DNA of 52,777 bases from a virus (taxonomy: Duplodnaviria > Caudoviricetes): positions 1 through 52,777 of IMG/VR virus record IMGVR_UViG_3300036716_000305, one strand, 5' to 3'. Numbering within the stretch: position 1 is the stretch's first letter; each line of letters begins with the position of its first letter. Shown piece by piece: positions 27,238 to 42,684 of the stretch. A model generated the notes under the pieces. It did not search any database. It saw only the letters and a list, made by a program, of their open reading frames with translations, and was not told the DNA's origin. Both the position numbers and the translations under genes were made by a program.

Positions 27238-28052
27238 TTAATTTCTCCAACTGTCCAAGTACCTGTTTTGTTGTTACGTCTACATCTTACACCATTTCCT
27301 TGGTGACTTTGGTTGTCACACATGTAAATAAGATCGTGCCTAAGGTTTTTTAATTCCTTGGTGTATTCGTCAACCAACCCTTTACAGGCTATCCATTTTG
27401 TTGTTGTTTCCAGCCAAACTTTATCATCTCTCTTTACAATGTCTAGCGGTCCAGCTTCGGGCTTGCCCTTAAAATACTCTTTCCAGCCATCCAAGATTGT
27501 TTCTCTTATCTCTGGGTCGCTTTGGTAAACAATGTATTGACCATCTTTATTCTTCCAGTCATACACCACAAAGTTACAGAAAGACTCTTTGGATAACATC
27601 ATCTGCTGTTCCATCTGCATCCGATATTGTAGGGGCAACTCTTCACCGTTTAACACTGTTAGCCACAATGGACTTTCACAACCATTAAGTGGTACTTTAA
27701 TTTCTACAATCTCAGTACCTCCATAGTATTGCTGGCCATCTAAGGAGGCCATTAAAGGCATACCAAAGGTTTCATCATCAACAATACAAAGTGGTAGGAA
27801 GAATTTTTTAGATTCTCTCTCGTACCACTCTAAGGCGGAATCTTCATATTGAGAACCTATAGACATAGCAAAGTTTTGCTTAATCTCAAGCTCTCCGTGT
27901 TTTAATTCCCAAAGCTGTAGCCTACTCTTTGGTATCCATGGGGAGACTTCACAAGCACTTGATGCTTCGCTAGCTGTTCCATACTTTCTTCTAAGGTTTA
28001 GCCATTCTTCGCTACCCTGCTTAAGGTCTTCTTCTTTATATACTTTAATCAC
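27234..28052 (-). CDS. YqaJ / lambda-exonuclease-like recombination nuclease
   Basis: QGSEEWL..R...TASE, ASLDG, EIKVP, Y..QM..QM. Confidence 0.88.
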   Translation of the reverse strand: MIKVYKEEDLKQGSEEWLNLRRKYGTASEASSACEVSPWIPKSRLQLWELKHGELEIKQNFAMSIGSQYEDSALEWYERESKKFFLPLCIVDDETFGMPLMASLDGQQYYGGTEIVEIKVPLNGCESPLWLTVLNGEELPLQYRMQMEQQMMLSKESFCNFVVYDWKNKDGQYIVYQSDPEIRETILDGWKEYFKGKPEAGPLDIVKRDDKVWLETTTKWIACKGLVDEYTKELKNLRHDLIYMCDNQSHQGNGVRCRRNNKTGTWTVGEIK

Positions 28053-29551
28053 TACTTTCTCCTTTTTGATCTTCTAATATTTAAGTATGTTATGTAGCTT
28101 TTAGTGTCTTTTGAGGGAGGCTTTGCGTTTGCATCTCTAAAGTCAGGGTCTGTTTTGAACCTAACTCTATAGCTGTGTACACACCATGATGGGTTGTATC
28201 CTTTAACGATAGCATATCCCATTAACTCTTCAAAAAAGTTCTTCTTAAAACCATCTCCATACCTTTCGGACTTCTCAACCTTTTTGGTTTTTTTGTCTAC
28301 TAAACCTAAAAGACCATCTACGTAAGCAACATGCTCACTCTTTGGTTTGGCTATATGACCACAGTTAGGACATATATTACTTCCAGAGAACACATGAAAA
28401 CAACCATCGCAAACAACTTGTGCCTCTTCTCTATCTTTAGAGTCTTTCCTTTCATTTTCCGAACTCCTTCCATTTGTCAGCACCCACTCATGGTCATCTG
28501 TTGCAAATCCACACGTATGAACGGCTCCTGAATGGTCAATGACGATTGCATTGGCCTTACCGGGGTAAGGTCTAAGAACTCTTCCAACCATCTGTATATA
28601 TAGCCCTAGAGACTTTGTTGGTCTCGCTAGGACGCATGTCTGAGCAATAGGGGCGTCAAACCCCTCTGTTAGAACCATGCAGTTACATATCACACTTATA
28701 TCGCCCCTGTTAAAGGCGGTGAGGACTTTTAATCTCTCTTCATTATCTGTTGTTCCATCAATGTGTGCAGCAGTAACTCCAGCTTGTTGGAATTGATTGG
28801 CAATATTCATTGAATGCTTAACGCTTGATGCGAAAACAATGGTGCTTGTGTCATTAGCTATGTGCTTCCAAGTTTCAACGATATTTCCAACCAGTTTAGG
28901 CTTATCCATAACATCGTTAAGATCTTTCTGGTTGTAGTCGTTGCCTATCGTTCCAACTTTCCTCAAGTCTGGAAGAGATGGCGCATAATAATTAGCAGTA
29001 ACTAAGCTTTTGTTCTCGGTTAATTCTTTAATGCTTGGAGCCTGAACCATGTCTGTGTATATATTGCCTAATCCAGTTCCATCACTGCGTATTGGTGTGG
29101 CTGTTAACCCGACAACTAATGGTGTACCAAGCTTCTCATAAAGCTCTAATAGCTTTAAATATGTTGGAGATGCAGACCTATGGGCCTCATCAATAACAAT
29201 CAAATCTGCTGATGGTAATTCCATCACTTTTCTTTCTATAACTCTAGCTCTAAGCGTGTCAATAGATGCTAATTGCACCCTTATATGGTCGCTAGATGGC
29301 ATTCCAGCCATTATTACCCCGTGGTCAACCCCTAGGTTATCTAGGGTCGTAGAGGCTTGTGTAATCAATTCTCTACGATGGGCTAAAAAAATAATTCTCT
29401 TGTCTTTAGAGATGTAGTGTTTTATTAATGCACTTGACATGACTGTTTTACCTGAGCCTGTCGCAGCTTGAAGAAGTATTCTTTTATGTCCAGATTTGGC
29501 AGAATGTACTATCTTATTTAAGACGTCTTTCTGATATTGCCTTAATTCCAT
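28052..29551 (-). CDS. SF2 (DEAH) DNA helicase with Zn finger
   Basis: LRQYQ, ATGSGKT, IDEAH, GLTATP, LTEGFD, QMVGRVLR, CDGC..CPNCG. Confidence 0.93.
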   Translation of the reverse strand: MELRQYQKDVLNKIVHSAKSGHKRILLQAATGSGKTVMSSALIKHYISKDKRIIFLAHRRELITQASTTLDNLGVDHGVIMAGMPSSDHIRVQLASIDTLRARVIERKVMELPSADLIVIDEAHRSASPTYLKLLELYEKLGTPLVVGLTATPIRSDGTGLGNIYTDMVQAPSIKELTENKSLVTANYYAPSLPDLRKVGTIGNDYNQKDLNDVMDKPKLVGNIVETWKHIANDTSTIVFASSVKHSMNIANQFQQAGVTAAHIDGTTDNEERLKVLTAFNRGDISVICNCMVLTEGFDAPIAQTCVLARPTKSLGLYIQMVGRVLRPYPGKANAIVIDHSGAVHTCGFATDDHEWVLTNGRSSENERKDSKDREEAQVVCDGCFHVFSGSNICPNCGHIAKPKSEHVAYVDGLLGLVDKKTKKVEKSERYGDGFKKNFFEELMGYAIVKGYNPSWCVHSYRVRFKTDPDFRDANAKPPSKDTKSYITYLNIRRSKRRK

Positions 29552-29570
29552 ACCAACTCCGTTATTAAGA

Positions 29571-29616
29571 ATCAGTTAAACCTATAGGACTGAAGCCTTA
29601 CATAGGTCTAACTGAT
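29571..29616 (-). promoter_or_regulatory. Long intergenic RNA hairpin (possible RNase III site or attenuator)
   Basis: Minus strand ATCAGTTAGACCTAT...ATAGGTTTAACTGAT, 15-bp stem with one G-U pair. Confidence 0.55.
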
Positions 29617-29629
29617 ATTTGCTTACCCT

Positions 29630-30139
29630 TTAAAAGGGAGGTTCGTCATCCATTCCAGCACTTGCCGAAGACAAACTTACTTCGGATTTTGGAGTGAAAG
29701 AGAAAGAACTACCCTCTCCACCATCGCCACCAGCGTACTCAACCAGCTCAAGGACTTGCACGGCTCTTAGTTCTGAGCCTACACCTGCGCGACCTTTGAA
29801 GTTGTACTCATATGTAGAGACTTCTACATTACAAACACTTCCGTTACCGATAATTGTGGTATCTACAGCATCACCAAACTTATCAACAACAACTGGGGCT
29901 GCTTTAGCGTCACCAGACTTCTTAAAAGTGCAACCACGCTTAACACCAATGGTTTCTACACCATCTTCAGACACCTTAATCTCAGGAGATGCTTTAGATG
30001 CTCTCCATTTTTTAGCTTGATCAGAGTCCAAAACAATAGTAATAGACCATTGCTGACCATCCTGATTAAAATTATCTTCTGTGTTAACGCCAAGTTTAGG
30101 CCACAAAACTTTTACATTTTCAAATACTGTTTTAGCCAT
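29630..30139 (-). CDS. Single-stranded DNA-binding protein (T7 gp2.5-like)
   Basis: IGNGS.C.V, LRAVQVLELVEY, acidic tail DDEPPF. Confidence 0.8.
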   Translation of the reverse strand: MAKTVFENVKVLWPKLGVNTEDNFNQDGQQWSITIVLDSDQAKKWRASKASPEIKVSEDGVETIGVKRGCTFKKSGDAKAAPVVVDKFGDAVDTTIIGNGSVCNVEVSTYEYNFKGRAGVGSELRAVQVLELVEYAGGDGGEGSSFSFTPKSEVSLSSASAGMDDEPPF

Positions 30140-30142
30140 TTG

Positions 30143-30433
30143 TTATACTCCTATATTTTTAAAGGTTTTTATCTTATAGCGAACCTTCATTTGATTCACT
30201 AATACTCTAGTCATCGCACGAACCATCGATAGTCTCTCACTCTTTTCAACCTGAGCGAATTGACGTTGATTCATGTTTAGACGTCTCTCGATCATTCGTG
30301 TCGCTTCAGCTCTCAACCTATTGGTTTTGAACGCTTTGACAGAACGACCATACCTAGCAATAGGCAGTATGTCCTCTTCGGACAACTCGTACATGCTAAA
30401 TTCTTTTGGTGTAATTAATTTTATTTCTATCAT
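30143..30433 (-). CDS. Hypothetical basic protein
   Basis: AAGGAG RBS before MIEIKLIT (start revised from 30481). Confidence 0.6.
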   Translation of the reverse strand: MIEIKLITPKEFSMYELSEEDILPIARYGRSVKAFKTNRLRAEATRMIERRLNMNQRQFAQVEKSERLSMVRAMTRVLVNQMKVRYKIKTFKNIGV

Positions 30434-30444
30434 ATTACTCCTTA

Positions 30445-30562
30445 TAAAAAAGAGCCATAAAAGACTATGCAGGAGGTGCATTGTGGTAGTAGTCTTCTAT
30501 GGCTTATTTATTATTATCACTTTCCACTACCACGTGGACCGGTGTAATTAAAATTTATTCTC
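30445..30562 (-). ncRNA. Candidate sRNA or attenuating leader with anti-SD (CCUCC) loop
   Basis: Starts at the promoter-like element; 15-bp stem (30504-30490/30467-30453), inner UGCA-CCUCC-UGCA hairpin, followed by a U-tract. Confidence 0.45.
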
Positions 30563-30581
30563 TATAACCCGTAGGACGAGA
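30552..30581 (-). promoter_or_regulatory. Putative phage RNAP promoter (leftward, replication genes)
   Basis: TCTCGTCCTACGGGTTATAGAGAATAAATT, exact copy of 41804-41833 on the opposite strand; TATA|GAG initiation-like end; abuts the RNAP stop. Confidence 0.75.
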
Positions 30582-30582
30582 T

Positions 30583-33015
30583 TCAACAGAAGAAATAATC
30601 TGAATCAACGACCTTTGAGATATCCAGTCTTCCTAGTTTAGGAGGGTGTTCTGTATATCCAATACCAGCCATATCTTTTCTTATATGACCAAATATATCC
30701 CTATCGTACATATTGATAAAGACGCTCTTTGTTACTCTTACTAAGTCTTCAACATCATCTGCATGGACACTATAAGAATCATGAATAGCGCCAAACGATG
30801 TAATACCCATATCATGTAGTTCATTAATGACCAGTGACATATGGCTAGCATCCATGCTGTGAACGTAGTTGGGGCTTATCCCACTCATTACCTCATGTAT
30901 AGCTGGTATTTCAGTTTGCTCTCTATAAACTAAAACGATCTTTTTGTTTTTGTAGAACAATGATACATCCTTTTGTCGAGTTACCCACTTCTCAGATATA
31001 ACTGGGAAGCCACTGGGAGTTGACCAAGTAACACAACTATGCCCCTCATCTTTCATTACATACTTCACAACAGATTGCAGGTAGTTCTTAATAGCTACTG
31101 GGCCACTACATATAGTGTTGTATGTATCAACCAAGTCCTTACTAAGCTTTCTAGCGATTGACTTTGTTATTCCATACTTTGTGGTCATCCCGGCATTGTA
31201 GCAGTCTGTATAGATAATGTCAGCGATACAGTTGACTCCAGCATCGTATGCCTTGGTCATAGACCCACGCTTACTAATTCCTTTACGAATCAGCTTCATC
31301 GGTATCTTAGCCAAGACAGCGCCCAAGTCAGTACCAATATTTCTATTGATAATTCCTTTGGCCACAATGATGTAGAAGTCTATCGGCTTATCTTTAGGTA
31401 TTAAACCGACCATACCGCCAGACACCTCATCTCTACTCATAGCCGCTAGATGTTGTGTTCCGTTTGAACTTCCATCTATGGATATTGGTAGTCGTGTGTA
31501 GTATTCATCACCAGACAACAAAGAACCATGATAGGCACAAACTTCAAAACAAAGGGACAGAAATACCCAAGGTTTCTCAGCATCCATCCAAATGTCTTTA
31601 TTCTTTAATGGATCTTCAGCAATATCCCATAATAACTCGATATTCTCTTCAGCCCATCTAAACCTGTCATTTAGCGACATTTTGTCCACACTCAGGTCAG
31701 GTATTCCATCAGCCTTAAGGTCTGTCACATAGTCAACCTCGAGCCAATCAAGCTTATTCAACTCATTAATCGTATATGATTTGTTGAAACTGTTGGCTGT
31801 GTGGATCATCATCCACCTATAACCTTTGTCAGTCATTAACCTCTTCTCATTGAACATTAAATGCCCTCTGGCAAGGTCGCTAGACTGATATGAAAAGAAC
31901 GGGTCTTTAGCATATATACGCCCTCTAAAGTCTAAAAACATAGACTGATAGAAAGAGTACGATGCCCAGCCACTAGGACCATTAATAGTCTCTAAGATTG
32001 CCTTATCTCTAGCTGCTTTGGATTGTTTGGCTAAGCAGTATTGCTTTGCTATCCAATTCTGATTATGAGCCTCAAACAAGACTTCTGTCTCTTTGATTTG
32101 CTCCTTAATCTTTAAGGCAACCTTTCCACCATCCTTTAAAGACCTTACTCTTCTGAAGAGTTTATTCAATTCAGACTCAATAGTCTTAACTGTTGTGGCG
32201 TTTCCCTTTTCTGGTTGGAATATCGCTCCATCCTTGTACAGGTCTACACCAATCAATTGTTTATTGAACGAGCCTCTTCTGATGTCTCTTACATCAAACA
32301 CCCTGTCTTTATTATTTATATCTTTAAGAACTATGGTGGTCGAGGTAATGTCATCCTCTAAAGACTCTGAGACTCTTGCAACATCTGGATTAACAATCCA
32401 TTTGACAGATTCAAGGTTGTTGACCGCCTTTACATATTCAGCCTTTGATTCTATAGTGTTCACCTTAGACTTAACAAGCTTACTTTTAATACCACCTACC
32501 ATGCGCTCGTTGGACTCCCATTGGGGGTACTTGTAGAGGCTGATACCAGACCGTTCTTTCTCGATAAAGCTAATATCCATGAAGTTGACACCCATCTCTA
32601 AATGATATGGCTGTAATCTTAACGTTCTTGTGATATTGTTCGACTTTATCTGCTCTAATGTAAAGTACGGCTCTCTACCCATTACTAAGTAGTCCGCAGA
32701 CACTAGTCTTGTTAGTATTAGCCAACCAAGCCTCATCCTATCGTCAGATGATACATCTAGAGACAGGTTGTCTTTTACAATACCTCCAATAACCATGTTG
32801 GCATTTGTTAGCATTATGTGTCCATCATGCCTCCTGAATTGCCCAATTAGGGCGAGGAATGAATCTTTAACAATATTGAACATTCTAAAATCATCTCTAA
32901 GGCATTTTGCATTCCTGATGATCTTACATGCAATGTTATTATTGTTGCGCTTGTGCATAACGTAGTCTTCTACGATCCACACAATCTCTTGAATTTCATT
33001 TCGATTGTCTTGCAT
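30583..33015 (-). CDS. T7-like single-subunit DNA-dependent RNA polymerase
   Basis: DFRGRIY, PISIDGSSNGTQH, RKGISKRGSMTKAY, W.TPSGFPV, SPNYVHSMDASH, IHDSY; start ATG 33015 preferred (track gives 33066). Confidence 0.95.
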   Translation of the reverse strand: MQDNRNEIQEIVWIVEDYVMHKRNNNNIACKIIRNAKCLRDDFRMFNIVKDSFLALIGQFRRHDGHIMLTNANMVIGGIVKDNLSLDVSSDDRMRLGWLILTRLVSADYLVMGREPYFTLEQIKSNNITRTLRLQPYHLEMGVNFMDISFIEKERSGISLYKYPQWESNERMVGGIKSKLVKSKVNTIESKAEYVKAVNNLESVKWIVNPDVARVSESLEDDITSTTIVLKDINNKDRVFDVRDIRRGSFNKQLIGVDLYKDGAIFQPEKGNATTVKTIESELNKLFRRVRSLKDGGKVALKIKEQIKETEVLFEAHNQNWIAKQYCLAKQSKAARDKAILETINGPSGWASYSFYQSMFLDFRGRIYAKDPFFSYQSSDLARGHLMFNEKRLMTDKGYRWMMIHTANSFNKSYTINELNKLDWLEVDYVTDLKADGIPDLSVDKMSLNDRFRWAEENIELLWDIAEDPLKNKDIWMDAEKPWVFLSLCFEVCAYHGSLLSGDEYYTRLPISIDGSSNGTQHLAAMSRDEVSGGMVGLIPKDKPIDFYIIVAKGIINRNIGTDLGAVLAKIPMKLIRKGISKRGSMTKAYDAGVNCIADIIYTDCYNAGMTTKYGITKSIARKLSKDLVDTYNTICSGPVAIKNYLQSVVKYVMKDEGHSCVTWSTPSGFPVISEKWVTRQKDVSLFYKNKKIVLVYREQTEIPAIHEVMSGISPNYVHSMDASHMSLVINELHDMGITSFGAIHDSYSVHADDVEDLVRVTKSVFINMYDRDIFGHIRKDMAGIGYTEHPPKLGRLDISKVVDSDYFFC

Positions 33016-33037
33016 AGCTACCACCCTATATAATGAA

Positions 33038-33196
33038 TTATTTGTCTTTCTTGTTAAAGGCGTCAATAACCCTTATTGGATTTACTTCCTTACCTCGCCT
33101 AGTATCTCGCCACTCATATGTGTAGCGTTCTTTACCTGTCACCGACCAATACACATCTGACTTAAAACCATCCCAAAGATCTTTGAAGAAGCTCAA
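33038..33196 (-). CDS. Hypothetical protein (52 aa; not in ORF track)
   Basis: TTG start overlapping the upstream stop, GGAG upstream (MSFFKDLWDGFKS...). Confidence 0.4.
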   Translation of the reverse strand: MSFFKDLWDGFKSDVYWSVTGKERYTYEWRDTRRGKEVNPIRVIDAFNKKDK

Positions 33197-33387
33197 TTCA
33201 GACTCTCCATTACTGTGAAGAGCCTCCTCATACTTGTGCGGTCTTCTTTGGTTTTAACATTGAAGTGCAACGTTCGCTCCAATGGCATGTCGTTAGTTAC
33301 TGTTTCGAGACCCTCTTCCGAGGCAATACTATAAAGAGTATCCGCACCTTTTTGAGTATCCATCTGAATTGTTATAATTATATTCAT
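33193..33387 (-). CDS. Hypothetical protein
   Basis: ATGA-coupled to the primase stop. Confidence 0.6.
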   Translation of the reverse strand: MNIIITIQMDTQKGADTLYSIASEEGLETVTNDMPLERTLHFNVKTKEDRTSMRRLFTVMESLN

Positions 33388-34316
33388 TTTAATCCTTTCA
33401 TGTGTAAATCATTAAAGTCTGTGCCTACCTGTTCGGGTAGAAATACATACACCTCTAAACCTTTATTTCTGAGCTTCTTAGCAAGGATATAGGCCGATGC
33501 TTGACCAGTAAAGGATTTGTCATTATCTCCATAGATAAACACAGTCTTAACCTTTTCTGGCGGTACAAAACTTTCCAAGCCACCTGAACTAACCGTTGCG
33601 AATGCCGGCAACCCACAATCAATATGGGCAGCATAAGCGGTCTCAACACCCTCAGCAATACAGATCTTATCTTCAAAGTCAATATGAAGCCTAATCGCAG
33701 CGCCACTTATTGTACCTTTAGGAGGCATAACCTTTCTTGCTGGGTCTAGATTAGCTTTCTTACCATCCTTAGTATATGTAAGGTGATAAGAGACCCCATT
33801 ACCCTCGTAGTCCTGAATTAAAGACACAAGGGTATCGTATGTACCAACTACGCGACCATCAGCCCAGTAGTCAAGCTTAGCCTCTCTCAAGCCATCAGGT
33901 ATCCCACCAAACCCTCTAGACATTAAGTACTTGTGAACACTCCCGGATGGGTGTATTCTCGAAGTCTTCTGAGCCACATTCCTTAGAGCAGGAACAGGGT
34001 CTCTCTTAGCTGTCTTGGGTTTTGCGAATACCTCAGGATTGTTGTTGTAGTCAACAATGGGTTTAACCATTTCTACAGCTTGTGCGAAACCAATCCCTTG
34101 GTACTTCATGAGTAACGTCCAGCCATCACCATTGCCACAACCGCGACAAAGATAAACACCAGCATCGTTCATGTCTGTAAAGGCAAAACGATCTTTACCT
34201 CCACACATTGGGCAAGGAGTATTCTTACCGCTTAGAAATGTTTCGTCAATACCGCATTGCGATAGTATCCCAAACCATTTCCCTTTTACCATTTCGGTAA
34301 TATCTTCTCTATACAT
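33384..34316 (-). CDS. DNA primase (Zn-ribbon + Toprim)
   Basis: PCPMCGGKDRF...CRGCG.GDG; IAEGVETA; YGDND; DFND. Confidence 0.9.
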   Translation of the reverse strand: MYREDITEMVKGKWFGILSQCGIDETFLSGKNTPCPMCGGKDRFAFTDMNDAGVYLCRGCGNGDGWTLLMKYQGIGFAQAVEMVKPIVDYNNNPEVFAKPKTAKRDPVPALRNVAQKTSRIHPSGSVHKYLMSRGFGGIPDGLREAKLDYWADGRVVGTYDTLVSLIQDYEGNGVSYHLTYTKDGKKANLDPARKVMPPKGTISGAAIRLHIDFEDKICIAEGVETAYAAHIDCGLPAFATVSSGGLESFVPPEKVKTVFIYGDNDKSFTGQASAYILAKKLRNKGLEVYVFLPEQVGTDFNDLHMKGLK

Positions 34317-34354
34317 CTTATTACTCCTTATTTATTATTAATTACACCACTAAC

Positions 34355-34750
34355 TTACCAGACTTTCTCCTCCATGGCTTTGTGCCAAGACTTCTTCCAG
34401 TCTGACTCTCTGGCGTAAGCTTCCTCCTCGTTGTTAGCGAAGTCGTTAAAATCAAACCTACCATCCCTATACTGCTCGAAATGAATCAGTTCGTGAGCAT
34501 AGGTTGTCAAGAGTTCGTCAATAAACAGGTCATCGCTCTCTAAGAGTTGTACTCTTGAACCACAAACTATATTAATCTCTATTGGGAACTCCTCCCAAGG
34601 ATCGGTCTCTTCAAAGAAAGGGTTAAAGAAACCCTCTATGTACCATTCGGCATTTATGCCTTGGCAAGCTTCCGCATCTTCGACTACGTTCAACTCAACA
34701 TAGTCTGGCAATGCAAAGCGCATTGTTTTAGCCATTCTCTCTATGTTCAT
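34355..34750 (-). CDS. HExxH metallopeptidase-like protein
   Basis: YAHELIHFEQY...EEEAY. Confidence 0.6.
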   Translation of the reverse strand: MNIERMAKTMRFALPDYVELNVVEDAEACQGINAEWYIEGFFNPFFEETDPWEEFPIEINIVCGSRVQLLESDDLFIDELLTTYAHELIHFEQYRDGRFDFNDFANNEEEAYARESDWKKSWHKAMEEKVW

Positions 34751-34808
34751 AATTTACCCCTAAGTCATTGTACTTGTTACAATTATAACAAATAATAACC
34801 ACTAAGTG

Positions 34809-35114
34809 TCAGTCATCTTCATATTCTCCAGTTATTCCATCAGGATTGTAGCTCTCATGTTCCATCCAATATTCAAGGAATGATCTAAGCGCCCGAATAT
34901 CTTCGATTTTCTCTACATCAACAGATATTGACTTAAAGCCAACCTCTCTTTCATCTAAAGATGCTTTTAACGAATCACCTGAAAAGTCCACATCTTGCTG
35001 AATTACCTTACCCTCAACAAAATCCATTTCCATGTCGCTCTGTGTTGCTAGGCAAAGTAACTGCCACATCTTATGCTTCTTCTCAAAGTCATTTTCAATT
35101 ATTAGTATTTTCAT
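34809..35114 (-). CDS. Hypothetical protein
   Basis: Coupled ORF with AGGAG RBS. Confidence 0.65.
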   Translation of the reverse strand: MKILIIENDFEKKHKMWQLLCLATQSDMEMDFVEGKVIQQDVDFSGDSLKASLDEREVGFKSISVDVEKIEDIRALRSFLEYWMEHESYNPDGITGEYEDD

Positions 35115-35332
35115 TTGTTACTCCTTTTTAGTTCTAAAATTGCTTCTAATCCCTCAATGATAAAAGACCATTCTTGGGAGTTGTTACCCTCAAAGCACAA
35201 ATGTGACCATTCATCATTAGAGAGTGTTGTGTCTAACGCGTGTTCAATAGACTCCTTATTCCAATGAGCTATTATGATGTTATCCTCTAACGGCTCTTCT
35301 TCCAATATTTCTATTGCTTCTTTTACTAGCAT
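35111..35332 (-). CDS. Hypothetical protein
   Basis: Coupled ORF with AGGAG RBS. Confidence 0.65.
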   Translation of the reverse strand: MLVKEAIEILEEEPLEDNIIIAHWNKESIEHALDTTLSNDEWSHLCFEGNNSQEWSFIIEGLEAILELKRSNK

Positions 35333-35333
35333 T

Positions 35334-35564
35334 TTACGCTCCTACTGGTAGTATTGAAATGTCTTTATCTGATGTGTATAACGCACCGGGGCCATTACCC
35401 TCATCATCTTGACTTGGAAATAAGAACGAACCATCAGTAAACTCTATTATTGGACAAGATCTGTCCCAATACATTTCTTTCTGTTCATCCTCGGTCATCC
35501 ATCGAATTGACTGAATGACTTTCCCTTTGAATGCCTTTGTGGCTTCATCTTCCCAGTTTCTCAT
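35334..35564 (-). CDS. Hypothetical phage protein
   Basis: AGGAG RBS; PSQDDEGNGPGAL motif. Confidence 0.7.
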   Translation of the reverse strand: MRNWEDEATKAFKGKVIQSIRWMTEDEQKEMYWDRSCPIIEFTDGSFLFPSQDDEGNGPGALYTSDKDISILPVGA

Positions 35565-35737
35565 TTTATTACTCCTATGAAATCATCTAATTGGTCTTCC
35601 GTTACTTCATCATTCCATTCATCTAAATGGCTCTTCAGTAAACTTATGTATGTTCTAAACGCATCGTCCTTACTACTGGCGATAACCTTTGCTACATCTC
35701 TTACAAGCCATTCTGGCTTAATTATTTCAAAAACCAT
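35561..35737 (-). CDS. Hypothetical protein
   Basis: AAGGAG RBS before MVFEIIKP. Confidence 0.55.
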   Translation of the reverse strand: MVFEIIKPEWLVRDVAKVIASSKDDAFRTYISLLKSHLDEWNDEVTEDQLDDFIGVIK

Positions 35738-35756
35738 ACTTACTCCTTTATTATTA

Positions 35757-36836
35757 TTAATCATCTCTTTCAACCCTCATCTCTTGCAAGATGTGGCTTA
35801 TTACATCGACAGTCCAACCATTACCAAGCATACGGTATCGCTGGGTATTTGACACACCCTCTGTGTAGTTGTCAGGTACGGTTTGCAGTCTTTCGCATTC
35901 CAAAGGCGTTAGTTTGCGATAGGTTGGGTGTTCATACCGCATGTAATCATAGTTCGCAGCAGTCAGACAGTTACTCTTGTCTTTCATGTTGCGCCCTCTT
36001 CTGGTCTTTGAGTTGATAAAGGTAGCATCAAAGCAATCACCATCTTCTATCTCTGTATAGCCTTTTTTGGTGGCTTCTGGAACAACTAAAACCTTTGGCT
36101 CTCTGTGACCACCACCCATCGTTGTCAAGGTAGGGGATTTTCCATCACGGTGATAAACTCTTTTAATAGAGTCATTCCCACTTAGATCTGCATCGCCCAC
36201 ATGGCACAACCCATCCTTGGAGAACACTAACTGTCTACGGTGCTTCTCAAAGTAAGACTTTAAGTTGCCACCTTTGAAGTAGTTAGCATCTATACAGAAA
36301 CTTTTGTCTCTATCGACAACTCCATCTTCCAGAATATCCTTTAGAACAATACCCTTATCTTCGGGTTGTTCGATGTTTGGGATATTAGTCCAATACAGTC
36401 TCACTCTATTCTGAGCGCAAAGCAAAGAACTATTGATCTTTACCGGCTTACAACCTACGGCCTCGCTGATAACGTCTTGATACTCCTGTTTCATTCTTAC
36501 ATTCTCTAGCAAGAAGTATTTAGGCTTGCATTCCTTTAGCAAGCGAACAAACTCAAAGAACAACGCTGACCTTGGGTCATCAAAGTTCAACTGTTTGCCA
36601 GCGAAAGAGAATCCTTGACAGGGACTTCCACCAATCAACAAGTCAATCTCTGGAAGCTGACTTGCTTTAACTTGTGTTACATCTCCGATATGCTCCATGT
36701 TCGGAAAGTTCTTCTTAGCTATCTTCATAGCCCATTTATCAATCTCAGATGCATAATAGTTATCCACCTTTACTCCAAGTTTAGCCAGTGCTATCTGCCC
36801 ACAACTCATACCATCAAATAAACTTAATACATTCAT
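35757..36836 (-). CDS. C5-cytosine DNA methyltransferase (orphan)
   Basis: LSLFDG, GGSPCQGFS, LLENV, QNRVRLYW, RKLTPLECERLQ, LGNGW. Confidence 0.93.
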   Translation of the reverse strand: MNVLSLFDGMSCGQIALAKLGVKVDNYYASEIDKWAMKIAKKNFPNMEHIGDVTQVKASQLPEIDLLIGGSPCQGFSFAGKQLNFDDPRSALFFEFVRLLKECKPKYFLLENVRMKQEYQDVISEAVGCKPVKINSSLLCAQNRVRLYWTNIPNIEQPEDKGIVLKDILEDGVVDRDKSFCIDANYFKGGNLKSYFEKHRRQLVFSKDGLCHVGDADLSGNDSIKRVYHRDGKSPTLTTMGGGHREPKVLVVPEATKKGYTEIEDGDCFDATFINSKTRRGRNMKDKSNCLTAANYDYMRYEHPTYRKLTPLECERLQTVPDNYTEGVSNTQRYRMLGNGWTVDVISHILQEMRVERDD

Positions 36837-36846
36837 TATGTTTCTC

Positions 36847-37242
36847 CTATCTTGTTAACATTATGCCAGAAGCCTCAATAACTGTAAAGTCACTATGCTT
36901 TATTGGCTTGTCATTTCCCACCACAAATGATGTATATTTGTAGGGATTAAAGCGCACTTTGCGAGTTGGTATGAATGTTTTGGCATTCTTATCAATCTGT
37001 ACCTTTCTTCCTAATCGGCTCACAAAGCCTTTCATTTGGACGATGTGTCCGTTAACTGTAGCTACTACAGCTTTACGCTTATCGCGTCTTATACGGGCAA
37101 CACCGGCCTCTGAGACCTGAAACGTCACATCTGAGAGCTTAATCTCGTCACAATGACCAACAACCAGCCCTGATGACTGATCTTTAATCGATAGCTTACC
37201 GTTGTGTAAGTTTCGATACACTTTGTACATTAAATTATTCAT
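36847..37242 (-). CDS. Conserved-looking phage protein of unknown function
   Basis: VYRNLH...G.V..H...L.DV.F.VSEAG..R...K...FNPY pattern; AGGAG RBS. Confidence 0.7.
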   Translation of the reverse strand: MNNLMYKVYRNLHNGKLSIKDQSSGLVVGHCDEIKLSDVTFQVSEAGVARIRRDKRKAVVATVNGHIVQMKGFVSRLGRKVQIDKNAKTFIPTRKVRFNPYKYTSFVVGNDKPIKHSDFTVIEASGIMLTR

Positions 37243-37562
37243 TTATTACTCCTATGTTATTGTTTATAACTTTCTCTGCACCGGTAATCCATACTGTATG
37301 CCAGCCTCTAAAGCCTCTTTGCGATGTCTTTCGCTCCTTGCTCTTATGTGGCTAGCGACAATGTTAAGAAGCAAGAAAGTACCCTCATACAATTGCACCC
37401 CATCTTTAACCTCTTCGCCCTCAGATACTTTTATAACATTATCGATGTATCGTATAGCCGCTTCAGCGGATTCTACATCTGAAAACACTCCGTGCCACTC
37501 TAGTAGCCTCCATTCTGCGTCAGTTAACATATTATTACTCCTATATTATTGTTTATAACTTT
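37243..37562. repeat. 31-bp direct repeat pair (37243-37273, 37532-37562) flanking one gene
   Basis: TTATTACTCCTATRTTATTGTTTATAACTTT, one mismatch. Confidence 0.85.
37264..37530 (-). CDS. Hypothetical protein
   Basis: AGGAG RBS provided by the repeat. Confidence 0.65.
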   Translation of the reverse strand: MLTDAEWRLLEWHGVFSDVESAEAAIRYIDNVIKVSEGEEVKDGVQLYEGTFLLLNIVASHIRARSERHRKEALEAGIQYGLPVQRKL

Positions 37563-37570
37563 TTCCTCCA

Positions 37571-37654
37571 CTAGGGGAGACTCAGCCCCAGTATAGTAAA
37601 CACTATAAGCCATGTGCTTATGGTTACCGCAAGCACTAACATCATTTTTAACAT
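37571..37654 (-). CDS. Small hydrophobic peptide (27 aa; not in ORF track)
   Basis: GGAG RBS; MLKMMLVLAVTISTWLIVFTILGLSLP. Confidence 0.4.
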   Translation of the reverse strand: MLKMMLVLAVTISTWLIVFTILGLSLP

Positions 37655-38188
37655 TTAATCATCTCCATTATTCATAAAGCCGTACTGATCTATCGACAAA
37701 AGCCATTCATTCCTTGCAATGTCCATGTCTGATGGTGCTAGCTTGTCACCCTCTACCCAGTCTACAAATGGAACTCCCCACACTACTCGAGTTTTCTGTT
37801 TATTACTCTCTAGTGCTTCAACTGCAAGCTTAGCCCTCTCTTCACCATTAAAATCTGTCTTACCTTTGGGCGCATATACCCTTACAGGGTCATCATATTT
37901 GTTTAATCTTGACCTTGCTGCGGCTTCATTCAACCTACACTTCACCATAAGATCTTTATAGTTTATTTCGTCACCATTTGACAAAATGTACGTCTTAAGT
38001 TTTGCATACACTCTCCTACCGCTTTGTGTTCCGGCCTTTTTAAAGATTTCTTCTTTAGTTTGGGCTTTTCTTAGCCTATACCTTACAGCGCCATTAGTTT
38101 TAAGACCAGTAACCTCCTTTATTTCATTGACTGTTACTTTAAAACCATCTGGAAGTGTGTGCACTACAGCCTTTCTACCTCTTTTCAT
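37655..38188 (-). CDS. Putative DNA-binding protein with two HTH-like repeats
   Basis: TVNEIKEVTGL...VRYRL and NYKDL..KCRL...ARSRL repeats; basic. Confidence 0.55.
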   Translation of the reverse strand: MKRGRKAVVHTLPDGFKVTVNEIKEVTGLKTNGAVRYRLRKAQTKEEIFKKAGTQSGRRVYAKLKTYILSNGDEINYKDLMVKCRLNEAAARSRLNKYDDPVRVYAPKGKTDFNGEERAKLAVEALESNKQKTRVVWGVPFVDWVEGDKLAPSDMDIARNEWLLSIDQYGFMNNGDD

Positions 38189-38601
38189 TTAATTCTCCTT
38201 GTTTTGGTCCAGTGATTGGGTGCATATTCTACATCTTCTTCTATGTAAACATCAGGCTCATCTTCTTCGATGTAGTCATCATCGTTCAAGTCTGTAAAGA
38301 CAAAACGATCGTTACCTCCCTCGTAGATGTCAGAGTCACCCGTATCTTTTGCTTCTTGTTTTGCTGCCCTCTCATTGAGCATGATAGCCATACACTCATT
38401 CATCGCATCAAGCGGAGAGATGATCTCTGAAGATGTTATATTTAATTCTATTGTGTGAATTAAACACTTGCCGGTGATTGAGCGAACCTCCATCGTTTCT
38501 TTACCAAAAGACAGTAACACACCAATCAGCCTTACATCATCAGTAAATTGGTGAAACACTTTGATAAATCTTCCTCGATTACTTCCTGTCCATGCTTTCA
38601 T
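38185..38601 (-). CDS. Hypothetical protein with acidic C-terminus
   Basis: Coupled ORF, AGGAG RBS. Confidence 0.6.
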   Translation of the reverse strand: MKAWTGSNRGRFIKVFHQFTDDVRLIGVLLSFGKETMEVRSITGKCLIHTIELNITSSEIISPLDAMNECMAIMLNERAAKQEAKDTGDSDIYEGGNDRFVFTDLNDDDYIEEDEPDVYIEEDVEYAPNHWTKTRRIK

Positions 38602-38765
38602 CTCAAATCTCCTAAATATCTACTCGCATCCATCCATAACGACTCATAAGAGCCTAGCTTGGCTAGTTTAAGCCTAACATCACCGGGCAATTCATCCCAG
38701 TGGTTATATACCGCCCATTTATTAAGTAATTTCACTTGATTTCTATTTAATGTTCTTGTTGACAT
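38598..38765 (-). CDS. Hypothetical protein (55 aa; not in ORF track)
   Basis: AGGAG RBS; MSTRTLNRNQ...; ATGA overlap downstream. Confidence 0.55.
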   Translation of the reverse strand: MSTRTLNRNQVKLLNKWAVYNHWDELPGDVRLKLAKLGSYESLWMDASRYLGDLR

Positions 38766-38871
38766 CGTATTTCTCCTGTGTTTTCTTATTAATTTTATTA
38801 GCTGTTTCCTTGATGCCCACCATACAGTAGGCTATCAAGAGAGTGATTAAACCTAAAAGTATGATAATCAT
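38743..38871 (-). CDS. Small membrane peptide (42 aa; not in ORF track)
   Basis: ATGA overlap; MIIILLGLITLLIAYCMVG... Confidence 0.45.
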   Translation of the reverse strand: MIIILLGLITLLIAYCMVGIKETANKINKKTQEKYDVNKNIK

Positions 38872-39083
38872 GCGTACATACCATCTATGAACTCTATTTC
38901 AACCCCGATACATCTGTCGGGATCTCCTTGGGCTTCACATTCTCTAGTGGATAGCCAATGACCCTCGCCAGACATATCCTCAGTTAGATGAACGCAGTGC
39001 TCGCAGTGTTCGCAATGAATACCATCATCGAAAACCTCATCCATGCAGTATTGTCGGTCTGCTAACCATTGTTCCTTACTCAC
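38868..39083 (-). CDS. Small Cys/His-rich protein
   Basis: GGAGGTG RBS + GTG; HCEHCEHCVH. Confidence 0.6.
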   Translation of the reverse strand: MSKEQWLADRQYCMDEVFDDGIHCEHCEHCVHLTEDMSGEGHWLSTRECEAQGDPDRCIGVEIEFIDGMYA

Positions 39084-39249
39084 AATTCACCTCCTCTTCA
39101 AAGTTCAACGCTAAATTTACCACTTTAACGTCATCATATCCGTTGTCAGTCCAACTCTGTTTGATGCGTAACGCTGTTTCTTTACAAACAAGGTGATTAA
39201 CAACCTCTGCGCCACCAACCCATACTGTATATGTGCCTTCTCTTTTCAT
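39076..39249 (-). CDS. Hypothetical protein (57 aa; not in ORF track)
   Basis: AAGGAG RBS; MKREGTYTVWVGGAEV... Confidence 0.6.
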   Translation of the reverse strand: MKREGTYTVWVGGAEVVNHLVCKETALRIKQSWTDNGYDDVKVVNLALNFEEEVNCE

Positions 39250-39259
39250 TTCTTACTCC

Positions 39260-39982
39260 TTATAGGTTTATTAACTTACTAATTGTGTCAATCACAAAGC
39301 CACTTGTATCTTTCTTTGCTGACCCTTTGGCTGACAATCCAACGACAACGCGTTTCTCATCTAAGAATCGCATATCGTGCTTATCTCCATCAATTACCTT
39401 TCGACCCTTAAAGGTCTTAGGGAATATCTTTGTTCTGAATACTACGGCAATGTTATTATCTGTATCCCACACATGCTCCAGAGACTTGAGATATTCTTCA
39501 GAGTGTTCGCTGTAGCTGTATGTAAGATGATAATTGCTAGGAAGTACCTTGTTGGATCTGTTGCCAACCTTAGTATAGTCATAGAACTGAATGTCCGGGA
39601 ACTCTTCCACGACCTTGAACCAGTTGACATCCGAAATAACATTTAGTCGAACAACTGGGATTTCGCCTTTCTTTTGGCATTTTATTTGTATCTTGGCAAG
39701 CTCACCTCTCAAGATCATCATAAATGTCTTGCGGTCTTTGTGAAATAACTCAGCCTTAGCCTTACGAGCTTTGATTACATTTGGGAAATTACCATGACCT
39801 GCTGATCTTAAGCATCCCTCCGTGCATCCAGCTTGCTCTTGCTTTGGACACAAGATAGGGTCTGGGTACAACGAAAGACCAAAAGTAACGTACTTCTTAA
39901 GGCCTCTAATAGCCATTTCGATGGCTAATTCGTTACTTTTCTCAAGTTTGGCATTGGACTTGCCGGGTGCTAGTAGTTGCAT
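39260..39982 (-). CDS. Gene-product-88-like protein (divergent radical-SAM-like, three-Cys motif)
   Basis: LCP...AGC..GCL..AG.G, VRLNVISD, FYDYTK, NYHLTYS, DGDKHDMRFLD. Confidence 0.75.
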   Translation of the reverse strand: MQLLAPGKSNAKLEKSNELAIEMAIRGLKKYVTFGLSLYPDPILCPKQEQAGCTEGCLRSAGHGNFPNVIKARKAKAELFHKDRKTFMMILRGELAKIQIKCQKKGEIPVVRLNVISDVNWFKVVEEFPDIQFYDYTKVGNRSNKVLPSNYHLTYSYSEHSEEYLKSLEHVWDTDNNIAVVFRTKIFPKTFKGRKVIDGDKHDMRFLDEKRVVVGLSAKGSAKKDTSGFVIDTISKLINL

Positions 39983-40032
39983 ATTAATGCTCCTTTATTA
40001 TTATTAATTATCAATTGCTTATGGTGTAAGTT

Positions 40033-40522
40033 TAACACACCTCATTGCCATCTGCAAGTTTTTATCCTCACAAATGGCAATAGGTTGTATTATTGTTGCT
40101 TGTTAGATGGAGCAAAGTCAACATGCGCCACAGTAAACTCTGGCACTTTGAACTTAGACTCTTGAGATTGACCCATTGTCGGTGTAACCGTAACAATGAC
40201 AGGTGAACCAACCTTGAAATGATTGTTCAAGAACTCAGCAGTACTTTCAAAGGCCGTAAGAGGGAAGAACTCCGCTCTTGACTCGCCCTTAACTTGGTAG
40301 TTATGAGCCACCGATACCTTGGTGACTGACTTCTTACCGTTACGTGCTGGGAAATACTTAAGTGCTGCAATGTTACCTGCTAATGTGAAAGTTGTTTTCA
40401 TGATATTTATACCTTTTGTTTTATTATAAGTGCCTCCGTAGCCTCATGACTACAGATAGCGTGATGTATTTAATAACACATCTCATTGCCATCTTTATTG
40501 AAGATAGCAATAGGCTGTATTA
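40033..40522 (-). repeat. Two related long hairpins (40033-40092, 40474-40522), each starting at a TAA stop
   Basis: Minus strand TAATACARCCTATTGCYAT...AGATGGCAATGAGRTGTGTTA with different loops. Confidence 0.75.
40090..40401 (-). CDS. ssb: Short bacterial-type single-stranded DNA-binding protein (OB fold, no acidic tail)
   Basis: LAGNI, VSVAHN, EFFPLTAF..TAEFL..HF.VGS.V.V. Confidence 0.7.
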   Translation of the reverse strand: MKTTFTLAGNIAALKYFPARNGKKSVTKVSVAHNYQVKGESRAEFFPLTAFESTAEFLNNHFKVGSPVIVTVTPTMGQSQESKFKVPEFTVAHVDFAPSNKQQ

Positions 40523-40606
40523 CTTGATAAGAATCCAAGCGATTATAAAAGGAATAGCTGTCAGGCATGCTCCAGATATTACTAATAACATTTCTGCATC
40601 GTTCAT
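40520..40606 (-). CDS. Small membrane peptide (28 aa; not in ORF track)
   Basis: ATGA overlap; MNDAEMLLVISGACLTAIPFIIAWILIK. Confidence 0.4.
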   Translation of the reverse strand: MNDAEMLLVISGACLTAIPFIIAWILIK

Positions 40607-40842
40607 AGCACCCCCCATCGCTCTAGTTGAGCCTCTGTGAAGTCTCCATACTTGCCAAATGCCTTCAAGTCATGGCGAAATTGAGCTTCCTCCATCTCTT
40701 GGGTTTCGCTCAGTATCAACAAGAGCCTTTCTATCTCAGACCCTTGTTGACCCTCTGTCAAGTACTCAAACCACTCACAAACCTCTTCGCTTGGTCTGGA
40801 CAAGTGTACTTCTTTCCAGCAATCACTAAACATATTAAACAT
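40603..40842 (-). CDS. Early hypothetical protein
   Basis: GGAGGTG RBS from repeat 1. Confidence 0.7.
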   Translation of the reverse strand: MFNMFSDCWKEVHLSRPSEEVCEWFEYLTEGQQGSEIERLLLILSETQEMEEAQFRHDLKAFGKYGDFTEAQLERWGVL

Positions 40843-40906
40843 AACGCACCTCCAGTGCTAAAGTAAACGATAGAGACTGCTCGTTAGAACAGCCTCGACT
40901 CTTACT

Positions 40907-41164
40907 CTATCCAATCCCAAAGTTCATTGAACATATGAACTTATAAATAGCTGGCTGAGACTTGCCATTAGGCCAGATCTTAGTCATCTTAAAGGACTGT
41001 GTGTATGGCTCTTCTTTCATGAACCATTTACGAAACGCAACGCGTCTCTTTGGTGAACTATCAAGTTCCTTAATCCACTTAGGATTAAACACCTTAAACT
41101 CAATTAAGGATTCGCCCGACTCATGGTGTGTTGCACCTGTCATTTCATAGCTTTCTTCTAACAA
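40907..41164 (-). CDS. Early hypothetical protein
   Basis: TTG start behind the GGAGGTG RBS of repeat 2. Confidence 0.65.
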   Translation of the reverse strand: MLEESYEMTGATHHESGESLIEFKVFNPKWIKELDSSPKRRVAFRKWFMKEEPYTQSFKMTKIWPNGKSQPAIYKFICSMNFGIG

Positions 41165-41227
41165 TTTGCACCTCCGTGCTTAAAGTAAACGATAAAGGCT
41201 ACTCTATGAATAGCCTTGACTCTTACT

Positions 41228-41413
41228 CTACAACTCATGCTCTAACCCATACAGGCCAGACTGCTTATGTTTCCTTGTATATGAGCCTTTGACTCCAAAT
41301 ACAAAGTCAATATAGGCGGCTATGTGTGCTGAATGACTAGTGCAAGATCTGTACTTATCAAACGCACATTTAGCTTGTTGTAACGCTCTTTCTTCTCTTT
41401 CTCTATGTAACAC
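41228..41413 (-). CDS. Early hypothetical protein
   Basis: GTG start behind the GGAGGTG RBS of repeat 3. Confidence 0.65.
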   Translation of the reverse strand: MLHREREERALQQAKCAFDKYRSCTSHSAHIAAYIDFVFGVKGSYTRKHKQSGLYGLEHEL

Positions 41414-41483
41414 AATGCACCTCCGTGCTTAAAGTAAACGATAGATACTACTGGGTCTCAGTCCAATAGTATCGACTCTTACT

Positions 41484-41765
41484 CTAAATATGACCACCAC
41501 GCACACCCTTGCTACCACCAGCAAAACCATACGCACACTCAAGACTATCCCAAGCCTTAACATCCTCAGAGAGGAAGTCAACACAGACAACCCACTCCAT
41601 GAACATCGAAGACCCAACACCACACATAGCCTCAACCATGTGGTAAGCCTCGTCCTCAGTGCCAGCCTCAACAACAATCTCCTGACCAAACTTGTACTTC
41701 CATACAGGGTTAGTTGCATCGCCATAGTTCTCTTCTACCTGTGTAATTGCTTTATATGTGTTCAT
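41484..41765 (-). CDS. First early gene, hypothetical acidic protein
   Basis: AAGGA RBS; TQVEENYG...WKYKFG; stop coincides with repeat 3. Confidence 0.7.
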   Translation of the reverse strand: MNTYKAITQVEENYGDATNPVWKYKFGQEIVVEAGTEDEAYHMVEAMCGVGSSMFMEWVVCVDFLSEDVKAWDSLECAYGFAGGSKGVRGGHI

Positions 41766-41803
41766 TGTATTTCCTTATATTATTATTAAATTATTAGATC
41801 TAT

Positions 41804-41833
41804 TCTCGTCCTACGGGTTATAGAGAATAAATT
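41804..41833 (+). promoter_or_regulatory. Putative phage RNAP promoter (rightward, toward the packaging/late module)
   Basis: Exact 30-bp match to the reverse complement of 30552-30581. Confidence 0.75.
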
Positions 41834-42023
41834 ATTTTCTTGAGCGCCTTTTAGAGTTACGACCCAGACTCACACAAGGTAGGCGCAATAGGGACGAGCT
41901 GTTAAAAGCTCACACTACCACAATGGGTCACCCAGTATCTATATGTATCTGAGAGATGAATATGTCCATCTTCCTCTGATGCCATAGATACCTATTGAAA
42001 CATTGAGTATGATAAGCTCTTCG

Positions 42024-42496: not shown

Positions 42497-42658
42497 TAGG
42501 TTAAATTAGAAACCATACAGGTCTCTCACAGAGCCCGTTCGCACCCTAACCCAAACTTAGCGGTCTGGTGGATGCAACAGCTGGTTGCGTAAGAACATAC
42601 AGGGAAAGTTAAGATCTTCGGAGACTTAGCAGATTTGTATGGTTCCTAATATAACTTA
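42497..42658 (+). ncRNA. Candidate structured RNA upstream of terS
   Basis: 28-bp closing stem (42497-42524/42631-42658, 2 mismatches, 3 G-U) enclosing hairpins, including a C(UUCG)G tetraloop. Confidence 0.55.
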
Positions 42659-42684
42659 AATTTCTAGAAAGTAAAGGAGGCTAT

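Follow-up and report, generated by a model that had tools for sequence, protein, structure and literature searches.

Genes and features behind the RNA polymerase gene

The stretch of DNA analysed here is IMG/VR virus record IMGVR_UViG_3300036716_000305, taken whole (52,777 bases, with a completeness estimate of 92%) and hereafter called the window. Our subject is a putative structured RNA of its minus strand, at positions 30445-30562, which follows the gene for a single-subunit RNA polymerase (RNAP). An earlier note, made from the sequence alone, had taken this element for a small RNA (sRNA) produced by the phage RNAP, whose CCUCC word could pair with Shine-Dalgarno (SD) sequences and shut off early genes. 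The minus strand from about 41765 to 20552 carries, among other genes, small early open reading frames (ORFs), a primase (33384-34316), the RNAP itself (30583-33015 or 33066; PF00940, E 2.3e-73), a 96-aa ORF with no family match, a gp2.5-like single-stranded DNA-binding protein (SSB; 29630-30139, phrog_112, E 1.1e-13) on the 3' side of that ORF and, after the SSB gene, an SF2 helicase (28052-29551). The RNAP start codon ATG at 33015 is shared with the relatives L003, L084 and L085 (relatives are cited by locus number throughout). Virion genes, including an SU10-type portal (44833-46986), occupy the plus strand.

Two nucleotides past the RNAP stop codon begins a 30-bp promoter-like element (30552-30581, minus strand) with a TATAG core at 30566-30562. 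It forms an exact inverted pair with an identical 30-mer at 41804-41833 on the plus strand, a rightward copy that faces the virion genes, and no third copy was found genome-wide at up to three mismatches of the 18-nt core. The element has the sequence features of promoters of the T7 group, being a phage-specific, recurring and gene-facing word of about 20 nt whose core resembles TATAG, and the same genome has a polymerase gene of the PF00940 type. We infer that it acts as a promoter for the phage RNAP, with a predicted transcription start near G30562.

Two hairpins with complementary loops

As minus-strand RNA, the stretch 30562-30445 has a predicted folding energy of -33.2 kcal/mol (z -4.5), which none of 200 shuffled sequences equalled. 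The plus strand of the same stretch is nearly as stable (-32.9 kcal/mol, z -3.6), so the fold alone cannot fix the strand, for which we argue from context. In the minimum free energy (MFE) structure, a short hairpin H1 (30538-30523; 5-bp stem, loop GUGGUA) is joined by an AU-rich linker to a long hairpin H2 (30453-30504) of 15 bp, 14 of them Watson-Crick and one G-U (30504-30490 with 30467-30453), which is closed by a loop of 22 nt (30468-30489). One C separates H2 from a tract of six U residues (U6, 30446-30451), and together they look like an intrinsic terminator, which a simple terminator scan overlooked because its loop limit was 8 nt. The next gene after U6 is the 96-aa ORF, with its AAGGAG and ATG at 30431-30443.

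Within the H2 loop lie the word CUACCAC (30489-30483), an anti-start-site stretch CACAAUGCACCUCC (30485-30472) and a small UGCA-CCUCC-UGCA hairpin (30480-30468) that presents CCUCC as a loop of 5 nt, and the MFE structure leaves CUACCACAA in this loop unpaired. CUACCAC mirrors the word GUGGUAG(U) of H1 (30533-30526), the full complementarity being that of GUGGUAGU (30533-30526) to ACUACCAC (30490-30483), and we refer to these as the kissing words. The predicted structure agrees with the earlier note on the leftward 15-bp stem, its G-U pair that works only on the minus strand and its U tract, as well as on the unpaired bulge and the CCUCC mini-hairpin; the pseudoknot between loop and upstream word, which had been offered there as something that could form, is the best-conserved tertiary feature of the element and covaries in relatives.

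A search of Rfam with the window from 29500 to 42700 at E values up to 1 returned a single weak match, to tp2, which lies elsewhere, and the loci of six relatives gave no matches. The tp2 match (40446-40558, minus strand) reached 29.2 bits (E 0.22), below the gathering score of 50, and is most likely due to chance.

A conserved RNA family in uncultured marine phages

The window RNAP gave 2728 tblastn matches, all below 60% identity and at 24-30% among the matches listed, and its best match in 50,697 phage records was less than 40% identical. Comparison with reference genomes returned a single relative, at 26%, and no host could be named; the label 'Candidatus Thioglobus' on one RNAP homologue is that of a bin and was not counted as host evidence. 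The nearest cultured relative by RNAP is Roseobacter phage CRP-7, whose layout 3' of the RNAP gene differs, and a DNA search of the phage records with the element and its surroundings gave no match. An exact-peptide scan of viral contigs with the window RNAP alone found none, and relatives were found by alignment-based scans, for which 29 RNAP homologues were aligned and 80 of 153 viral-contig loci and 80 of 203 metagenome-contig loci were taken. In this way, 50 distinct copies of the element were gathered from uncultured marine relatives, by a search that required complementary words and forced them unpaired in folding.

Behind the RNAP gene these relatives share a layout of promoter word, short hairpin, long hairpin mostly with a T run, and gp2.5-like SSB gene, the last being the next gene after the element, either directly or past further hairpins. 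A clade with 46% RNAP identity has the element about 0.9 kb further on, behind two extra ORFs, and still between promoter word and SSB gene. A T run of at least four follows H2 in 47 of the 50 copies (45 by script, L018 and L027 by eye), with L009, L010 and L104 as true exceptions, and a promoter-like word stands upstream of every copy (40 found by a regular expression that proved too strict, 10 by eye). Each relative has its own word of about 20 nt at the corresponding place, ending in TTATAGAG, TATAGG or TAAAGG, and L026, L100, L051, L031 and L005 carry a second, opposite-facing copy about 10 kb upstream, which reproduces the two-promoter layout of the window. The element is absent from L004, L005, L008, L086-L092 and L101-L103, where the promoter word runs straight into a ribosome-binding site (RBS), and from L007, L012, L031 and L100, which have different hairpins instead; in the remote group L053-L082, a gene lies directly behind the RNAP gene and there is no element. 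To judge from these sequences, the copies very probably represent a conserved, structured RNA family outside Rfam, built of two hairpins with kissing loops.

The loops vary around a common pattern. The large 46% clade and its neighbours have an almost invariant H2 loop, ACUACCACACCUCC, with the variants ACCUCU, ACCUAC and ACUUCC, and the loop of the window corresponds to one of this type lengthened by about 5 nt (AAUGC) between CUACCAC and ACCUCC. Most of the 50 copies have ACCUCC after the kissing word, and the C-rich word lies unpaired in the loop, as it does in anti-SD sRNAs. The types of L006, L097, L010, L104, L110 and L009 are without CCUCC. The three nearest relatives are also without it, and the putative anti-SD word is therefore recurrent, not universal.

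In a clade named here for its word GUGGCG, a second conserved motif, UUUCAU..CUUCCUUA, occurs about 20-60 nt behind the U tract of H2 (L037 5090-5113, L051 8644-8667, L040 6290-6308 and other loci of the clade), where it is paired with a GGAGG-like word in a further hairpin and mirrors a generic SD plus AUG. It was considered as a targeting word and dropped, since the start of a 574-aa gene came out best in L037 and L051 (-23.5 kcal/mol) and other loci had different top sites.

Covariation and strand

A joint MAFFT alignment of all clades misaligned the GUGGCG clade, and we therefore used two alignments, A3 with 29 sequences and A4 with the 11 of the GUGGCG clade. In A3, changes on both sides were seen in 10 of 12 H2 pairs, and 92.3% of cells were paired compared with 81.7% after shuffling, while in A4 both-side changes were seen in 5 of 6 pairs of H1 and 11 of 18 of H2. 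With either alignment, neither the pairing nor the covariation of the real data was attained in any of 500 shuffles, and the fraction of paired cells dropped to 27-52% in slid controls. Covariation in related phages, to which the earlier note had looked for a check, is accordingly seen in both stems and extends to the kissing words. The complementary words of the H1 loop and of the 5' part of the H2 loop vary by clade and exist in five versions: GUGGUAG/CUACCAC (37 copies, some extended to UGUGGUAGG/CCUACCACA), UGUGGCG/CGCCACA (nine copies), GUGGUGG/CCACCAC (two copies), and GUGUGGG/CCCACAC and GUAGCAG/CUGCUAC (one copy each). Unconstrained folds of the relatives also place the kissing words in loops.

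The strand can be approached through the same data. In L149 and L151, GUGGUAG pairs with UUACCAC through a G-U pair, which fits RNA rather than DNA. Across the 50 copies, the sense strand is the stabler one in 32, and G-U accounts for 90 of 1293 stem pairs; these statistics lend modest support to an RNA of the minus strand.

The RNAP start site as recurrent predicted partner of the loop

We ranked the H2 loop of each locus against every SD-bearing start of an ORF of at least 60 aa on the same strand; these start-site ranks replaced whole-locus sliding-window ranks, which were noisy in that they included stem flanks. Of 50 distinct pairs, 37 had the RNAP start site as the best predicted partner of their loop, compared with 3.7 under a uniform expectation, 121 of 500 (24%) for shuffled loops, 17 of 50 for reversed loops, 19 of 50 for bare CACCUCCU and none of 50 in the sense control. 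By script group, it ranked first in 3 of 4 for the window and its nearest clade, 4 of 6 for group C (including three rows of the L006 type), 5 of 10 for the GUGGCG clade and 25 of 28 for the ACUACCACACCUCC clades, and in neither the single L097 row nor the single L009 row.

Most relatives have at their RNAP start site either GUGG, which often consists of a GUG start codon and the G after it, or GGAGGUGU. The script located GUGG or GGUGU in 29 of 37 distinct RNAP start sites accompanied by the element versus 2 of 15 without it, and since the two exceptions, L151 and L030, carry a G-U form of the element, the corrected counts are 31 of 39 versus 0 of 13. In the window, the RNAP start site (33013-33024, minus strand) consists of GUGGUAG (33024-33018), CU and AUG; GUGGUAG is the word of the H1 loop, and the site has a 7-nt complement in the H2 loop.

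Individual site and loop pairs illustrate how the complementarity shifts from clade to clade. In L003 the site AGUGUGGUAG faces CUACCACACU in the loop, and L084 has the same pairing with one G-U; the corresponding pairs are UGAUGUGG/CCACAUCA in L104, GGCGUGG/CCACGUC in L110, AGGUGUGG/CCACACCU in L042, UGUGGCG/CGCCACA together with GGAGUA/UACUC in L159, GUGGUAGUAU/AUACUACCAC in L016 and CGGAGGUGU/ACACCUCCG in L126. The segments predicted to pair change together, with compensation that is specific to the clade. An open search of each locus for antisense matches of at least 10 nt also arrived at AGUGUGGUAG at the RNAP start site of L003, and across 21 further loci this site was the sole start-site match of that length. 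Among 37 loci with the ACUACCACACCUCC loop word, no start site was complementary to the loop over 9 nt or more. A matrix of own against swapped loops is not used as support here, the own loop being best in 7 of 18 rows and the ACUACCACACCUCC loop binding nearly all sites.

Upstream of the RNAP start in the 46% clade (for example in L018, L024 and L126), at a distance of 20-60 nt, stands AATAAGGGT(A/G), sometimes twice, which may be an early promoter or another signal.

A long match to early start sites in the window

In the window itself, the most extensive complementarity of the loop is to small early genes. The sequence GGAGGTGCATTGTG occurs exactly at 41411-41424 on the minus strand, with its mirror in the element at 30472-30485, as well as with one mismatch at 39081-39094 and with two at 40840-40853; at up to two mismatches there are five matches, where 0.37 were expected. 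The exact copy comprises the SD and GTG of the early ORF 41228-41413, to which the loop offers a perfect 14-nt complement (duplex -31.5 kcal/mol, the best of the 152 SD-bearing start sites on both strands against which partners were ranked). The other sites are the SD and GTG of ORF 38868-39083 (39081-39095; 14 of 15 nt complementary when an extra A is included, -24.8 kcal/mol), the SD of ORF 40907-41164 (41164-41175; a 9-nt complement, GGAGGTGCA, at 41167-41175, -24.2 kcal/mol) and the SD with ATG of ORF 40603-40842 (40840-40853; an 8-nt complement, -23.3 kcal/mol). All of these matches had been named in the earlier note, the last at 40846-40853, and each was recovered.

These four early sites are four of the five best partners in the ranking, the fifth being an ORF in the non-coding strand-switch region, so that in the comparison with SD sites and shuffled controls that had been proposed, the early cassettes come out at the top of the real sites. 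A run of 14 nt was reached by none of 2000 shuffled loops and by none of 2000 shuffles with CCUCC held fixed (maximum 13), and the exact match is thus unequalled in 4000 shuffles. A single stop-hairpin-RBS cassette (families D6 and D10), present in repeated copies, supplies all four sites; they are therefore not independent, and their matches count as one event. The cassette, in the form stop-hairpin-TATCGTTTACTTT-RBS, occurs three times between the first early genes (40837-41486, minus strand), each time with the SD inside a small GCAC-GGAG-GUGC hairpin.

Proposed mechanism

Our best reading of the locus is that the H2 loop acts on the start sites of early genes, and we consider the chances of this evenly balanced. 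Under it, the host RNA polymerase would transcribe the early operon through the phage RNAP gene and halt at H2. The phage RNAP, once made, would start near 30562 and produce H1-H2 either as an RNA of about 115 nt or as the leader of the SSB/replication message. The H2 loop could then pair with SD and start regions and exclude the 30S subunit, and the shut-off of early protein synthesis would follow the activity of the RNAP. For most relatives, the RNAP message would be the target, giving negative feedback on RNAP synthesis, while in this phage the lengthened loop would be aimed mainly at the four cassette-type early genes, with 7 nt left to the RNAP site. H1, which repeats the target word, may pre-stack or pre-order the loop so that its 3' bases are presented, or it may be an internal competitor that sets a threshold. 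Action in cis, in which the RNAP message would pair through its 3' end with its 5' end, and action in trans would both fit. Promoter use, termination, pairing in cells and repression we infer from the sequence.

The feedback that the earlier note had proposed, a shut-off once RNAP is made, survives in altered form: there is a conserved structured RNA behind a phage-type promoter, with a loop complementary to an early start site in relatives, and the conserved target is the RNAP gene, not the small ORFs that had been named. Its further suggestion of a shut-off of host translation finds nothing pointing to the host. Whether the four early ORFs are true targets would stand or fall with the start-site reading, and they draw no support from relatives. 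Taken as a whole, a self-limiting circuit, in which the first product of the promoter behind the RNAP gene would mask the RNAP RBS, and here also four early genes, by means of an RNA family that would be new and common among uncultured marine T7-like phages, is credible enough to propose while remaining somewhat doubtful.

Several observations weigh against action of the loop on start sites. The RNAP site of the window has only its 7-nt match (-11.9 kcal/mol, rank 22 of 63), and the 14-nt early-gene match is without counterpart in relatives. The nearest clade (L003, L084/L112 and L085, with RNAPs 63-68% identical to that of the window) also has the small UGCA hairpin, in which UUA or AUAUUAU stands where the window has CCUCC, and L093, L094, L097 and L009 have the element without an RNAP-site match, L095 ranking it first only weakly (-7.9 kcal/mol). 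H1 pairs with loop bases that the target needs as well. Strain is to be expected in a 14-bp helix formed within a closed 22-nt loop, and the net gain is -5.2 kcal/mol if H2 must open, although RNAcofold cannot represent pairing of loop and target with H2 closed, and its gains are a lower bound. The kissing pairing found in all 50 copies is true by construction of the search, so that only the variety of the words counts. RNAP sites are G-rich and attract any C-rich loop, as the shuffled loops and bare CACCUCCU attest, and part of the signal in the ACUACCACACCUCC clades is therefore merely that of the strongest SD; the 50 pairs are moreover related by descent and not independent. For both reasons the raw counts overstate the case, while the threefold excess over shuffled loops and the changes between clades remain. 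Finally, the RNA-library contigs show coverage of the region and no transcript ends.

Alternative explanations

The element might instead be a plain early terminator and stabilising 3' end of the RNAP message, comparable to the early terminator of T7, and at once a 5' leader, in which case the complementarity of its loop would have no function. In every clade, H2 with its U tract is indeed the first terminator-like site past the RNAP gene, the start-site match is missing from some clades that have the element, and the 24% of shuffled loops that put the RNAP site first demonstrate how C-rich loops score on G-rich starts by chance. A plain terminator, however, requires neither a conserved loop nor a second hairpin with a covarying loop, and it leaves aside that the RNAP site comes first at a rate three times higher with true than with shuffled loops and that the paired segments co-change between clades; we regard it as unlikely, while giving it real weight. 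A related proposal makes the element a cis-acting leader or attenuator of the SSB/replication operon, its kissing fold tuning termination of the phage RNAP at H2, or an operator bound by SSB, in the manner of the leader pseudoknot that serves as operator of T4 gene 32, an operator in which an unstructured stretch extends from the pseudoknot to the RBS. In every case the element is found after the promoter and ahead of the gp2.5-like SSB gene, which is the next gene in relatives, often past hairpins, and a terminator placed 90-115 nt behind the sole promoter of an essential operon calls for read-through control. Such a leader leaves unexplained the complementarity to an RNAP start site 2.5-3.4 kb upstream, and L008 and L101-L103 keep promoter and SSB gene while missing the element. 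In the window a 96-aa ORF separates element and SSB gene, and in place of a gene 32-type operator there are two kissing hairpins ending in a terminator. Regulation of this kind in place of action on start sites thus seems to us improbable.

A transcription-primed replication origin, at which promoter and AU-rich linker would yield a primer RNA, is in keeping with a location just past the RNAP gene and with the AT-rich linker of the window and the nearest clade. The linker of other clades is short and not AT-rich, and an origin needs neither covarying RNA helices nor a match to start sites, which makes this explanation very improbable. A last explanation concerns the plus strand, whose mirror RBS (30472-30485) might start a real gene for a 22-aa hydrophobic peptide; alternatively, the complementary words might be bound as DNA by a protein. 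A hydrophobic frame of 22 codons is indeed opened there (30483-30551, VVVVFYGLFIIITFHYHVDRCN) by GGAGGT and GTG with a 6-nt spacer, and the plus-strand fold is nearly as stable. The opposite strand of relatives, however, reads GGAGGTGTGG, with the GTG too near the SD and no common frame, and the G-U pairs in the stems and in one kissing version fit only an RNA of the minus strand, so we give this possibility hardly any credence.

Relation to known systems

The switch from early genes and the limiting of phage RNAP are known mainly from T7, where both are carried out by proteins (a protein inhibitor and host shut-off). In T7, phage promoters lie just behind gene 1 and upstream of the early terminator, and a transcription-primed replication origin is also found behind gene 1. 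The layout seen here is similar, with the RNAP gene followed in turn by a phage promoter, a host-type terminator and the replication genes, although the RNAPs are less than 30% identical; for the region behind gene 1 of T7, we are aware of neither a kissing hairpin nor a loop directed at start sites. Among bacterial sRNAs, RNAIII, RsaE/RoxS and those of the LhrC type have C-rich anti-SD loops that pair with SD sequences. The element resembles them in its unpaired CCUCC, held in a hairpin loop and able to pair with an SD, and differs in that the predicted pairing reaches the spacer and start codon and in several clades omits the SD, in its phage origin and in belonging to no Rfam family.

Closer to the proposed action is the c4 antisense RNA of phages P1 and P7, a structured RNA whose loop sequences pair around the RBS of a phage gene and block its translation (PMC12197685). 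The element would likewise mask an RBS by an antisense sequence presented in a loop. Unlike c4, the element has no Rfam C4 match, carries its pairing bases in a terminator loop with a second, kissing hairpin, follows a putative promoter for a single-subunit RNAP and has the RNAP gene as its conserved target. The icaR mRNA of Staphylococcus aureus offers a case of pairing between 5' and 3' untranslated regions, in which an anti-SD word past the coding region binds the SD of the same message (PMC3868564). H2 being the first terminator reached past the RNAP gene, an early RNAP message is expected to end with it; this position fits in all clades, and the pairing with the RNAP site is strong in relatives and 7 nt long in the window. 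Here, unlike in icaR, a promoter lies between gene and element, so the RNA could also be made alone. Terminator loops as such can be regulatory, those of SdsR, RseX and ArrS acting on fepA 'likely without base-pairing' (PMC11979758). The intrinsic-terminator loop is proposed as the regulatory part here too, with the difference that extended complementarity is the main evidence for it. Two mutually complementary loops on one RNA are also known from the pRNA of phi29, where they pair between molecules in the packaging ring (PMC4201828), and nothing links the present element to packaging.

In the literature, supplements aside, we found no report of an sRNA that targets the gene for a single-subunit RNAP, and the available text of a 2025 review of phage sRNAs (PMC12197685) does not contain the term 'RNA polymerase'. 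If the proposed action is real, an RNA would take the part that a protein inhibitor and host shut-off play in T7, and an RNA made by the RNAP that masks the RBS of the RNAP gene would constitute a feedback module both minimal and portable. A large group of uncultured marine phages without a cultured member would thereby gain a structured RNA family with covarying hairpins, a covarying kissing loop and a co-changing target, and the window may exemplify how a small insertion can retarget such a loop.

Sequencing libraries and further observations

Three RNA-library runs and one DNA run were compared with the window as contigs, parts without coverage being no finding in either direction. Contigs from the RNA libraries cover the region of the element; being contigs, they carry no information on ends, strand or level. 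For X6, an RNA-library run, contig depth added up to 74 at 41606-42000, 27 over 29600-34981 and 1-12 over the early genes, these being contig means and not a measure of expression.

About 95 nt behind the rightward promoter copy, at 41914-41925, the minus strand reads CATTGTGGTAGT and the plus strand ACTACCACAATG, the same 12 nt as in the H2 loop. This match was dropped as being at chance level (about 0.7 expected by our own estimate), and the 12-nt loop word was not seen near the second promoter copy of the relatives L051 and L044.

Contigs of DNA run X17 diverge from the window sequence at 30415 and 30449, at the 3' edge of the element, which suggests strain mosaics with breakpoints beside the terminator.

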